Of a stretch of 64,000 bases of DNA, positions 60,351-64,000 are shown piece by piece. Numbering within the stretch: position 1 is the first letter of the stretch; each line of letters starts with the position of its first letter. The notes beneath the pieces are model-generated. The model saw nothing but the letters and a program-made list of their open reading frames with translations, ran no database searches and had not been told where the DNA came from. The position numbers and the translations under genes are program-made. The stretch lies in the sequence record NC_054929.1, one strand, 5' to 3'. This DNA comes from Escherichia phage PE37.

Positions 60351-60389
60351 GTTTACATACTGATGAGGTAGTGATACTATTACCTCATC
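60351..60389 (+). promoter_or_regulatory. early promoter with stem-loop (PeSL-like)
   Basis: GTTTAC at 60351-60356, TGaTACTAT -10 at 60375-60380; IR GATGAGGTA (60362-60370) / TACCTCATC (60381-60389). Confidence 0.65.
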
Positions 60390-60410: not shown

Positions 60411-60695
60411 ATGAAAACTTATCAAGAATTCACTTCAACGACTAACGCTTCTACTTTGACTGAAGCGACCCTTACTTCTGAAGTTATTAAAGCAAACAAA
60501 GGACGTGAAGGTAAACCGATGATTAGCCTGGTTGATGGCGAAGAAATCAAAGGTACTGTTTACCTAGGTGATGGGTGGTCTGCTAAAAAGGATGGTGCTA
60601 CAATCGTTATCTCTCCTGCTGAAGAAACTGCTTTGTTTAAAGCCAAGCATATTTCAGTAGCTCAGCTTAAAATTATTGCTAAAAATCTTTTGTAA
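60411..60695 (+). CDS. internal-protein candidate with capsid targeting signal
   Basis: N-terminus MKTYQEF...LTE-A matches CTS and prohead-protease L-x-E site pattern of T4 internal proteins. Confidence 0.6.
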   Translation: MKTYQEFTSTTNASTLTEATLTSEVIKANKGREGKPMISLVDGEEIKGTVYLGDGWSAKKDGATIVISPAEETALFKAKHISVAQLKIIAKNLL

Positions 60696-61726: not shown

Positions 61727-61799
61727 TGGGAATTAGCCAAGTTGGTAAGGCACTGGATTTTGATTCCAGGATGCAAAGGTTCGAGTCCTTTATTCCCAG
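61727..61799 (+). tRNA. tRNA-Gln (anticodon UUG)
   Basis: cloverleaf by eye: acceptor TGGGAAT/ATTCCCA, anticodon stem CTGGA/TCCAG, loop TTTTGAT, T-loop TTCGAGT. Confidence 0.85.
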
Positions 61800-61800
61800 C

Positions 61801-61887
61801 GCGAGAATGGTCAAATTGGTAAAGGCACAGCACTTAAAATGCTGCGGAATGATTTCCTTGTGGGTTCGAGTCCCACTTCTCGCACCA
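61801..61887 (+). tRNA. tRNA-Leu (anticodon UAA), type II with long variable arm
   Basis: acceptor GCGAGAA/TTCTCGC, anticodon loop CTTAAAA, T-loop TTCGAGT, encoded CCA. Confidence 0.85.
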
Positions 61888-61892
61888 AATTT

Positions 61893-61966
<74 letters not shown>

Positions 61967-61976
61967 ATTTAATTTA

Positions 61977-62050
61977 CTCCGTGTAGCTCAGTTTGGTAGA
62001 GCGCCTGATTTGGGATCAGGAGGTCCAAGGTTCAAATCCTTGTATGGAGA
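61977..62050 (+). tRNA. tRNA-Pro (anticodon UGG)
   Basis: anticodon stem CCTGA/TCAGG, loop TTTGGGA, T-loop TTCAAAT; acceptor has G-U pairs; no encoded CCA. Confidence 0.8.
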
Positions 62051-62052
62051 CT

Positions 62053-62142
62053 GGAGGCGTGGCAGAGTGGTTTAATGCACCGGTCTTGAAAACCGGCAGT
62101 CGCTCCGGCGACTCATAGGTTCAAATCCTATCGCCTCCGCCA
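62053..62142 (+). tRNA. tRNA-Ser (anticodon UGA), type II
   Basis: acceptor GGAGGCG/CGCCTCC, anticodon stem CCGGT/ACCGG, loop CTTGAAA, long variable arm, encoded CCA. Confidence 0.85.
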
Positions 62143-62147
62143 GTTTT

Positions 62148-62223
62148 GCTGATTTAGCTCAGTAGGTAGAGCAACTCACTTGTAATGAGAAGGTCGGCGG
62201 TTCGATTCCGTCAATCAGCACCA
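62148..62223 (+). tRNA. tRNA-Thr (anticodon UGU)
   Basis: acceptor GCTGATT/AATCAGC, anticodon loop CTTGTAA, T-loop TTCGATT, encoded CCA. Confidence 0.85.
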
Positions 62224-62224
62224 A

Positions 62225-62299
62225 GGCCCTGTAGCTGGAAGGTTCAAGCAAGCGACTCATAATCGCCAGATGGTGGTTCAATTCCACCCAGGGCCACCA
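62225..62299 (+). tRNA. tRNA with CAU anticodon (Met or lysidine-type Ile)
   Basis: acceptor GGCCCTG/CAGGGCC, anticodon loop CTCATAA, T-loop TTCAATT, encoded CCA. Confidence 0.8.
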
Positions 62300-62308
62300 A
62301 ATTAATTT

Positions 62309-62395
62309 GGGGAGTTATCCCGTAGAGGTAGCGGTGTGGACTGTAAATCCATTGTCATTGCGACTCGGGTGGTTCGACTCCATCACTCCCCACCA
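62309..62395 (+). tRNA. tRNA-Tyr (anticodon GUA), type II
   Basis: acceptor GGGGAGT/ACTCCCC, anticodon loop CTGTAAA, variable-arm hairpin, T-loop TTCGACT, encoded CCA; D-arm atypical. Confidence 0.75.
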
Positions 62396-62399
62396 ATTT

Positions 62400-62474
62400 G
62401 GATGTGTAGCTCAATGGCAGAGCGATCGCCTGTTAAGCGATTGGTTATAGGTTCGAATCCTATCACGTCCGCCA
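62400..62474 (+). tRNA. tRNA-Asn (anticodon GUU)
   Basis: acceptor GGATGTG/CACGTCC, D-stem GCTC/GAGC, anticodon stem ATCGC/GCGAT, loop CTGTTAA, T-loop TTCGAAT, encoded CCA. Confidence 0.88.
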
Positions 62475-62478
62475 AATC

Positions 62479-62554
62479 CGAGGCATAGCTCAGAAGGAAG
62501 AGCAAGGACCTTCTAAGTCCTAGGTCGTAGGTTCGATCCCTACTGCCTCGACCA
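62479..62554 (+). tRNA. tRNA-Arg (anticodon UCU)
   Basis: acceptor CGAGGCA/TGCCTCG, D-stem GCTC/GAGC, anticodon stem AGGAC/GTCCT, loop CTTCTAA, T-loop TTCGATC, encoded CCA. Confidence 0.88.
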
Positions 62555-62570: not shown

Positions 62571-62921
62571 ATGAAAGGTAATGTTTATTTAGTAGTTCAT
62601 GATTTAACATTTTATTTTAATCACAATGACACGGTTATTTCTGAACGTGTAATTAATTTGCTTTATCAACACGCGGATTATGTTTATGTCGAAAACGAAT
62701 ATGGTCATTGGCAATTTCTCAAAAATCGTTCATTTGGCTTAGATGGTTACGAATACTTTGAACGTAAAGACCTTTTAGATAAAATTTCGTTATCTACACA
62801 ATATCAAAATCATAAGTCTTTACATAAATGTCGGCTAATTCGAAATGCTGAATCTGCTTATGAAGCAATTGATTTATGGCGTTTACGCCGTGAACAAATT
62901 GATGCTTTAAAAGAATATTAA
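62571..62921 (+). CDS. hypothetical protein (116 aa) inside the tRNA transcription unit
   Basis: ATG 17 nt after tRNA-Arg 3' end with GAGGAAAA RBS. Confidence 0.5.
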   Translation: MKGNVYLVVHDLTFYFNHNDTVISERVINLLYQHADYVYVENEYGHWQFLKNRSFGLDGYEYFERKDLLDKISLSTQYQNHKSLHKCRLIRNAESAYEAIDLWRLRREQIDALKEY

Positions 62922-63089
62922 GAAACCGGGTCGCTACCGGTAAGTCGTCGGACTGATGTTCCCTGTTTAAGGACTGGCATTAATAAATCTTTATGTTTTG
63001 TTAATGTCCTCTTATATCACAGCAGAAACGGCGCACCGAATTATCGATTCGAGGAAATATCTTTGCCGTAAGCCGAGTAGCGTTTTTGA

Positions 63090-63184
63090 CGGAACGTTCG
63101 GATATGGTCGAGATATGGCCTTTTAAAAATATTGAGTAGCGTCAACTGCTTAATAACCGGGTTCGAATCCCGGCGTTTCGTACA
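63090..63184 (+). ncRNA. tRNA-like stable RNA candidate
   Basis: 7-bp acceptor-like helix (63090-63096 with 63174-63180) closing a canonical T-arm (CCGGG-TTCGAAT-CCCGG, 63157-63173); no clean D or anticodon arm; terminator at 63236-63260. Confidence 0.35.
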
Positions 63185-63235
63185 AACACTTGCCTTAGCA
63201 GGTGGAACCCCGACAAGGTTGCCGCAAGGCTTAGA

Positions 63236-63260
63236 CCCGACCGAAAGGTTGGGGCTTTTT
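63236..63260 (+). terminator. intrinsic terminator closing the tRNA/stable-RNA unit
   Basis: CCCGACC-GAAA-GGTTGGG followed by GCTTTTT. Confidence 0.7.
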
Positions 63261-63262
63261 GG

Positions 63263-63270
63263 TATAAATA
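63263..63270 (+). promoter_or_regulatory. late promoter TATAAATA (CTS protein at 63311)
   Basis: exact 8-mer directly after terminator, 41 nt upstream of ATG. Confidence 0.6.
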
Positions 63271-63310
63271 TAGTAGTATATTAAATCCACGAATTAAAAC
63301 AGGAAATAAG

Positions 63311-63784
63311 ATGAAATCATATACTCAATTTTTAAATGAAGCGGTGTTAAATGAAGCATCTAGCACCGAAATTCAAGCTGTCGCAAAAGCAGCCATTGCA
63401 GCGGGTAAATATTCTTACAAAGATGCTTCTGATGAATCGCGATTCCAGTTTGCACGCGACATGAAAGCGGAAGGATTTACGGGAAATGCAGTTAGTATGG
63501 CCTGGAAAAGTTTAGTTGCTACTGGCGCTGCTTTTGCAAAGGCTTCGGGTAAACCTGCTCCTAAAGCAGATCCTAAAGTCGCACAAGAGAAAAATATTGT
63601 TAAAGGAATTATCTCCAAATATGAAGCTATCCTTAAAGAGCTTTTAGTAATCAAAACTGAAGGCCAAAAACTAGCTCGTGCTTATAGTTTCAAAGATAAC
63701 CCACATGCTCACTCTCTTGAGTATGTTGAAGACATCCAAAAAATTATTAAAGACCGCATTTGGTCTGCTAAACAAATCAAATAA
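63311..63784 (+). CDS. internal-protein candidate with capsid targeting signal
   Basis: N-terminus MKSYTQFLNEAVLNEA (CTS-like with L-x-E sites); late promoter at 63263-63270; terminator downstream. Confidence 0.55.
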   Translation: MKSYTQFLNEAVLNEASSTEIQAVAKAAIAAGKYSYKDASDESRFQFARDMKAEGFTGNAVSMAWKSLVATGAAFAKASGKPAPKADPKVAQEKNIVKGIISKYEAILKELLVIKTEGQKLARAYSFKDNPHAHSLEYVEDIQKIIKDRIWSAKQIK

Positions 63785-63792
63785 CATTCTTA

Positions 63793-63819
63793 GCCCCGAC
63801 CAAAAGGTTGGGGCTTTTT
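63793..63819 (+). terminator. intrinsic terminator (near-duplicate of the 63236 terminator)
   Basis: GCCCCGACC-AAAA-GGTTGGGGC followed by TTTTT. Confidence 0.7.
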
Positions 63820-63953
63820 GGTATCTAGGCCTTTCCAGGCCTCTCTAGACATCATTTAGTTTCTACCCTTTATAATATATTATCCTATCCTTTGATTTCC
63901 CCTCCCTGCCCTAGAATTCCCCAAAACTTTTTAAAAATTTTTTTCACAAAACG

Positions 63954-63983
63954 GTTTACATCCTTGTCCTTCCATGGTACTAT
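63954..63983 (+). promoter_or_regulatory. early promoter (same consensus; stem-loop not resolvable, window ends)
   Basis: GTTTAC at 63954-63959, TGgTACTAT -10 at 63978-63983; same upstream TTTCACAAA and downstream ATCAACTACTG as the 60714 copy. Confidence 0.55.
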
Positions 63984-64000
63984 ACAACTATCAACTACTG

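Follow-up and report, generated by a model that had tools for sequence, protein, structure and literature searches.

The open reading frame (ORF) at 63311-63784 (+) of the window (the whole 64,000-nucleotide stretch of Escherichia phage PE37 DNA that was analysed) probably encodes a further internal protein (Ip) of the T4 type, carried on a small cassette, here termed cassette A, between the stable RNA gene rnaC and gene e.8. Judged from its sequence, the ORF behaves like an Ip in its leader, its composition and its context, and falls outside every named Ip sequence family. Cassette A is an indel with a copy of the rnaC-distal terminator at each end, and the locus occurs in four states among related phages; the rnaC-e.8 gap is therefore best read as a third polymorphic ip locus, undescribed in the literature searched, that is mobilised through terminator-mediated recombination.

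The ORF (157 aa, starting MKSYTQFLNEAVLNEA; PHROG family phrog_2280) has a product identical to RB68_138 and to the RB51 counterpart, and region 62900-64000 as a whole is 98.6% identical to RB51 and RB68, the window phage being a Tequatrovirus. A T4-type late promoter, an exact TATAAATA at 63263-63270 (+), stands 40 nt 5' of the ATG and directly after a terminator, and a Shine-Dalgarno sequence, AGGAAA, can be read directly at 63301-63306 (+), 4 nt 5' of the ATG. The terminator upstream, a hairpin at 63236-63253 with a T-run to 63259, is the intrinsic terminator of the tRNA/rnaD/rnaC unit and is contained in one copy of a 36-nt direct repeat (63230-63265, +); the other copy (63789-63824, +; spacing 559 nt) forms the cassette A terminator, with a perfect 10-bp stem at 63792-63815 and a T-run followed by GGTATCTAGG, the T4-type right flank toward e.8. 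The near-duplicate terminators of the preliminary description are thereby seen to be a single 36-nt sequence present twice, with 34 of 36 positions (94%) matching, and no other direct repeat was found within 62900-64000. The hairpins have folding energies of -14.6 kcal/mol (z = -2.8) for 63236-63253 and -19.5 kcal/mol (z = -4.3) for 63792-63815. The last bases of the upstream copy, GGTAT, overlap into the late promoter, which occurs at that copy only; no sigma-70-like site was found at either copy. With its own TATAAATA, Shine-Dalgarno sequence and terminator, and with a terminator upstream, the ORF has on sequence grounds the makeup of the stand-alone late unit proposed earlier, and the proposed ORF, promoter and terminators were all recovered in place. 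At position 63235, in the upstream terminator, the window has A where RB68, phiD1, JLBYU22, RB14 and T4 have C; the A breaks the outer stem (7 pairs vs 10; -14.6 vs -19.5 kcal/mol) and might perhaps allow more read-through from the tRNA/rnaC transcript into cassette A.

Because the window has 24 copies of TATAAATA, compared with 9.4 ± 3.3 in shuffled sequence, a lone match is only moderately informative. It is placement that gives this one its weight, since it lies directly after a terminator and 40 nt from the ATG with AGGAAA in between, and since the arrangement recurs in Jiaodavirus: Klebsiella phage phiKp_22 has a terminator, an exact TATAAATA and a CTS-bearing ORF (CTS, capsid targeting sequence) in the same layout directly after its tRNA genes. 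In the Mosigvirus PhAPEC2 a terminator is followed by AATAAATA, a 7/8 match to the late promoter, and then by a CTS-bearing ORF. Homologues of the ORF were found by tblastn in 510 phage records, at full length in 468 of them, and dN/dS relative to the Mosigvirus orthologue is 0.08, with synonymous sites saturated. The ORF is a genuine gene under purifying selection; that it might be a chance ORF was rejected on the basis of this ratio and of the mass-spectrometric detection of the product of a 98.7%-identical orthologue.

The first ten codons (63311-63340, +) specify MKSYTQFLNE, a predicted CTS that ends in the motif L-N-E for the prohead protease gp21, with a predicted cut at E10|A11. The gp21 motif is L/I-X-E, and in amber-suppression work on IPIII targeting was assigned to residues 4 and 7 and processing to residues 8 and 10 (PMC9026906); at these mutagenically defined positions the ORF has Y4, F7, L8 and E10, all four kept. 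An in-frame 15-nt tandem duplication (63332-63357, +; TTAAATGAAGC at 63332-42 and again at 63347-57) adds a second L-N-E|A site, L13-N14-E15|A16. The duplication belongs to the Tequatrovirus version, the Mosigvirus and Klebsiella homologues having a single L-x-E site. Among the named Ips of T4, T2, T6 and RB32 the leaders are MKTYQEFIAE (IPII, IPIII, Ip6), MKTYQEFITE (Ip4), MKTYQEFISE (Ip9) and MKTFKEFINE (Ip7), while IPI and Ip5 begin MKTFKEF and have a later TE| site; the ORF leader departs from the classical MKTYQEFIAE at residues 3, 5, 6 and 9.

The likeness was quantified with a position-specific scoring matrix (PSSM) built from the leaders of eight named Ips (IPI-III, Ip4-7, Ip9), the phrog_2280 family being excluded, and applied to the 870 candidate starts that the six frames of the 64-kb window offer for ORFs of 50 aa or more. 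IPI ranked first at 29.9 bits and the start of the ORF second at 7.1 bits, a modest lead over the third-ranked start at 2.3 bits; the mean was -24.6 and the standard deviation 6.5. A leader of the type MK[ST][YF].[EQ]F is present, among window ORFs of at least 40 aa, in IPI and in ORF 63311-63784 only. In homologues the pattern is kept down to ~40% identity, in Mosigvirus, Klebsiella Jiaodavirus, a Yersinia phage and metagenomes, with leaders such as MKTYNEFLNES, MKSYAEFLTEQ, MKFKEFLAEA, MLEYSEFLKE and MLKFNEFLAEG in which F7 and L8 are invariant, and every aligned homologue has an L-x-E motif. The PSSM rank of 2/870, together with the retention of Y4, F7, L8 and E10 in homologues of three genera, upholds the earlier designation of the product as a CTS-bearing protein. 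The predicted tryptic peptide within leader residues 1-15 is SYTQFLNEAVLNEASSTEIQAVAK, and the trimmed forms are predicted to begin AVLNEASSTEIQAVAK from A11 and ASSTEIQAVAK from A16.

Cleavage at E15 would leave a mature protein of 142 aa and ~15.5 kDa with pI 9.6, net charge +8 and 14% Lys. The eight named Ips used for comparison have pI 9.0-9.7 in seven cases (Ip6 = 6.5) and 12-16% Lys in all. An AlphaFold2 model built on a 10-sequence alignment (pLDDT 77.5) is all-helical, with a low-confidence leader, a three-helix N-domain at residues 18-71, a low-confidence linker and a long helical hairpin at 88-154. These parts correspond to blocks of sequence: the conserved N-domain (residues 17-75, AGKYSYKD..ESRFQFARDM..GF; 63359-63535, +) is ~66% identical to Mosigvirus and Klebsiella homologues, the Lys/Pro/Ala-rich linker (residues 76-87; 63536-63571, +) has low predicted order (block mean pLDDT 57 for residues 81-90), and the C-terminal helical hairpin occupies residues 88-157 (63572-63781, +), residues 76-157 being 91% identical to the Mosigvirus version. 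Foldseek returned no match at E < 1 from the PDB, and from BFVD only members of the same family; the fold therefore gives no function. Scans of the ORF against Pfam, NCBIfam and PADLOC yielded nothing usable, the sole hit, Shikimate_dh_N, being rejected as sub-threshold (E 0.12). Named Ips are placed in other PHROGs (phrog_4363, 3155, 2667, 7673), which are labelled internal virion or head protein, and IPI_T4 is PF11634. An exhaustive HMMER search also returned the large proteins P0017-19, each with five matched stretches; these are Ig-like repeat proteins in which 'AAGSYSYKAF' was matched through repeat inflation, and the matches were discarded as spurious.

Homologues P0009 and P0010, of Yersinia phage fHe-Yen9-01 and Klebsiella Jiaodavirus phages (L010 2995-3528), have the leader, the N-domain (~66%) and the KP-rich linker in common with the ORF. 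The C-terminal half of the Klebsiella and Yersinia phage homologues is unrelated (~26% identity) and ends ...GDVGRHYKKL, which suggests, at the level of sequence comparison, that the domain behind the linker has been replaced.

Cassette boundaries were examined by comparing junctions in loci anchored on rnaC and e.8, a usable anchor being available in nine loci besides the window. In T4 there is no ORF between rnaC and e.8; a single terminator copy runs directly into GGTATCTAAG / GGTATCTAAGCCTTTCCAG, the latter being the sequence that follows the second terminator copy in the window. The junctions obey a simple grammar in which the terminator, ending ...GGTTGGGGCTTTTT, is followed by GGTATCTAGG (the e.8 flank), by GGTATAAATA, which opens cassette A, or by AGTTTGAATC, which opens a different cassette B. 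Four states result: empty in T4 (from sequence) and in T2, T6 and PST (judged by spacing, the rnaC-e.8 distance equalling that of T4's empty state); A only in the window, RB32, RB68 and phiD1; B only in RB14, Shfl2 and CT01; and A + B in JLBYU22 and the Mosigvirus PhAPEC2. The breakpoints of indels between relatives lie within the terminator or at its end, in the T-run. The preliminary description had inferred cassette exchange and had proposed comparing the terminator copies across related phages; across the nine loci and the window the copies do mark cassette boundaries, coinciding with the edges of the indels that leave the locus empty or occupied by A, B or both. Its statement that the other internal protein genes of T4 lie elsewhere is likewise correct, ipI being upstream of the tRNA genes and ipII and ipIII beyond e, with the rnaC-e.8 gap empty.

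Cassette B carries a 187-aa 'hypothetical protein' starting MKTYAEFLTEAAKLPSE, with leader MKTYAEFLTEA and a mature pI of ~9.5, followed by its own hairpin terminator and then by GGTATCTAGG; its ORF lies at L005 1600-2163 in JLBYU22, L011 1501-2064 in RB14 and L009 3589-4152 in PhAPEC2. The cassette is present in 165 phage records, in the rnaC-e.8 gap, alone or downstream of cassette A. PHROGs places the products of A and B in one family, phrog_2280 (unknown function); pairwise BLASTP sees the leader only, and the match by hhalign is C-terminal and weak (60% probability), so that paralogy of the two cassettes is suggestive only. Region 62900-64000 is matched at the nucleotide level by 770 phage records, of which ~320 cover < 80% of the query; many relatives, T2, T4 and T6 among them, are without the gene, which is therefore dispensable.

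Evidence bearing on packaging comes from Yersinia phage fD1 (= phiD1, HE956711), whose g140 (67942-68415, 157 aa) is 98.7% identical to the ORF. In LC-MS/MS of ultracentrifuge-purified fD1 virions g140 was particle-associated at the strict threshold, as were the named Ips g129 (Ip4) and g146 (IPI); no detection was recorded in that preparation for its neighbours g139 (e.8) and g145 (PMC8309999 Table S3). The dataset, public as PXD026812, is of low specificity, 113-137 of 277 phage proteins (41-49%) being particle-associated, gp57A and an HNH endonuclease included, and the preparation also contained 672 host proteins (PMC8309999). Because the proteome is this unspecific, detection of g140 raises the odds of packaging few-fold only and is no proof. 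Presence in virions and cleavage at the L-x-E site had been named earlier as the points on which the claim would stand or fall; the first is thus partly answered, by detection of a near-identical protein in a dataset of low specificity, and the second stays a prediction.

We infer the following course of events for cassette A. Late in infection, RNA polymerase with the phage late sigma factor would initiate at TATAAATA (63263-70), and transcription would end at the 63792-63819 terminator to yield a monocistronic mRNA of ~0.5 kb. The leader MKSYTQFLNE, through Y4 and F7, would act as CTS and bring the protein into the prohead scaffolding core, where gp21 would cleave after L-N-E, at E10 and/or at the duplicated E15; the basic ~15.5-kDa protein would then remain in the head and be ejected with the DNA at infection. 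Once injected it would, by pure analogy with Ip1-3, disarm host defence at entry; analogy is the ground for this last step because neither the named Ips nor any protein of known function or fold shows detectable homology to the mature part. The four locus states would arise by recombination inside the rnaC-distal terminator or at its end. More tentatively, we raise as a possibility that rnaC-e.8 is a third ip locus of the Tevenvirinae generally, that the phrog_2280 cassettes A and B, found in hundreds of phages and not in T2, T4 or T6, encode injected inhibitors of defences beyond the reach of Ip1-3, for example further GmrSD variants, and that the terminator repeats serve as handles by which cassettes are traded between co-infecting phages.

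The protein might instead be packaged for a structural or physical role (neutralisation of DNA charge, packing, ejection or help in the core), with no effector function against host defence and with its presence or absence nearly neutral. A basic, Lys-rich mature part with a KP-rich linker would suit such a role, the lysines of internal proteins being reported to contact DNA phosphates (review PMC3012670); dispensability in so many relatives and the lack of similarity to any known inhibitor agree with it as well. However, specific inhibition of GmrSD variants was found for all three T4 Ips tested (PMC12373910), and the combination of patchy distribution, dN/dS of 0.08 and a C-terminal domain that is exchanged from one host genus to another is a better fit to a host-specific interaction than to a generic polycation, so that we consider a purely structural protein unlikely.

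Far less probable still is a late cytoplasmic accessory protein without specific packaging, with a CTS likeness that is coincidental or vestigial and a mass-spectrometric signal due to lysate carry-over. Carry-over is in keeping with the many non-structural phage proteins and the host proteins in the fD1 preparation, 4-5 of the 10 leader residues are not those of MKTYQEFIAE, and the 5' regulatory region is unlike that of classical ip genes. Against this, the CTS positions shown to matter experimentally are retained from genus to genus amid variable neighbours, the adjacent and otherwise dissimilar cassette B has the same leader type, the leader ends in a protease motif that is even duplicated, and carry-over would have to account for g140 in a preparation in which its neighbours g139 and g145 went undetected.

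Like the T4-type Ips (IPI-III, and Ip4-Ip9 of T2, T6 and RB phages), the ORF has a leader of the type MK(T/S)(Y/F)x(E/Q)F(I/L)xE that ends in a gp21 L/I-X-E site, and a predicted mature protein that is small, basic and lysine-rich; like them it is non-essential and patchy, forms a single-gene unit in a hyperplastic region beside the tRNA cluster, and has an orthologue that was detected in virions. Unlike the named Ips, with which it shares sequence similarity in the leader only, it belongs to a separate PHROG, phrog_2280, and its packaging and processing are predictions made here. It also differs from the classical Ips in its position, which is rnaC-e.8 rather than 57B-tRNA.4 or e-denV/vs.8, and in the duplication of its predicted cleavage site. 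T4 ipII and ipIII are preceded by an early-type promoter/AAAGGAAACATATG motif and a conserved ribosome-binding site, whereas the 5' region of the ORF consists of a terminator, the consensus late TATAAATA and AGGAAA. A classical locus and this 5' motif are typical of Ips but do not strictly define them.

The predicted mode of delivery (CTS, head, co-injection with DNA) is the same as that of Ip1, Ip2 and Ip3, with which the ORF would also share an evolutionary pattern in which one leader precedes mature domains that are diverse and unrelated; unlike them, it has neither homology nor predicted structural similarity to the proven GmrSD inhibitors. Bair 2007 is reportedly a source for Ip1, Ip2 and Ip3 as injected inhibitors of GmrSD. 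Each of the three inhibits a distinct GmrSD type IV restriction enzyme (Silas 2025, PMC12373910). In its organisation the locus resembles the PeSL (promoter-early stem-loop) cassettes of T4-type phages (Arbiol 2010, PMC2839356; Comeau 2014, PMC4122927), described for RB49 and phi1 in PMC2839356, in which a single accessory ORF with its own promoter and terminator lies between repeated GGGG...CCCC-type stem-loops, is found in some phages and missing from their close relatives, the breakpoints falling in the repeats, and is proposed to move by homologous recombination between short repeats. Unlike the PeSL, the repeated unit here is a plain 36-nt intrinsic terminator that contains no sigma-70 early promoter, the late TATAAATA being associated with the upstream copy only.

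Nearly all database entries call the phrog_2280 ORF hypothetical, and the annotators of RB32, RB51 and RB68 labelled Ip4/5/7/9 but kept this ORF as hypothetical; the homologue in Klebsiella phage KPKp is, in its submitter's wording, an 'Internal head protein'. The RB32 GenBank record describes the ORF as 'flanked by 34 bp imperfect direct repeat', so that the flanking repeat is not a new observation, and novelty is modest because of this record and of the KPKp name. A full-text literature search under the names of the ORF found no paper that discusses it, some older work and supplements lying outside the search. Recent work has established that T4 internal proteins are injected and specifically inhibit type IV restriction enzymes, the targets known so far being those of Ip1-3. 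Should phrog_2280 be a further family with a CTS, several hundred T4-like phages used in therapy or as models would have one or two additional candidates for injected anti-defence proteins, now 'hypothetical', and T2, T4 and T6, naturally without the cassettes, would offer a ready gain-of-function setting. The four-state locus with its clean terminator breakpoints is a compact natural example of effector shuffling. The finding extends a known class rather than introducing a new principle, and its value is mainly as a candidate for anti-defence screens.

At its 3' end the window covers the tRNA region of a T4-like phage and stops just 5' of e.8. The gene order there is that of the RB68 annotation: 57B, an ip gene, tRNA.4-.2, ten tRNAs, a 116-aa ORF, rnaD, rnaC, ORF 63311-63784 and e.8. 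The first CTS protein of the window, an IPI orthologue at 60411-60695 (+) in the normal ipI position (PF11634, E 5e-52), has a leader of 18 residues, MKTYQEFTSTTNASTLTE|A, and at 60352-60380 a promoter of the early type (TTTACA-17-TACTAT). In the ipI position RB68 and RB51 have Ip5 where the window has IPI, although in the rest of this region they are its closest relatives; the window phage is thus mosaic at this locus. The ten tRNA genes at 61727-62554 (+) are Gln, Leu, Gly, Pro, Ser, Thr, Met-CAU, Tyr, Asn and Arg, compared with eight in T4; Tyr and Asn are the extra ones, the CAU-anticodon gene is the counterpart of T4's annotated tRNA-Ile, and no seg homing-endonuclease gene lies inside the cluster. 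Between tRNA-Arg and rnaD, and touching the annotated rnaD start, lies the 116-aa ORF (62571-62921, +; phrog_3355, unknown function; RB51ORF141/RB69ORF150c-like); T4 has no ORF at this position, its segB being at another place in the tRNA cluster. The stable RNAs rnaD and rnaC (62918-63181, +, positioned from the RB68 annotation) are strongly conserved among these phages and matched no Rfam family, even at E <= 0.01. An early-type promoter for e.8, TTTACA-17-TACTAT with an extended TG, is found at 63955-63983 (+), ~130 nt 3' of cassette A, and is kept in T4; removal of the cassette would therefore not affect e.8 expression.
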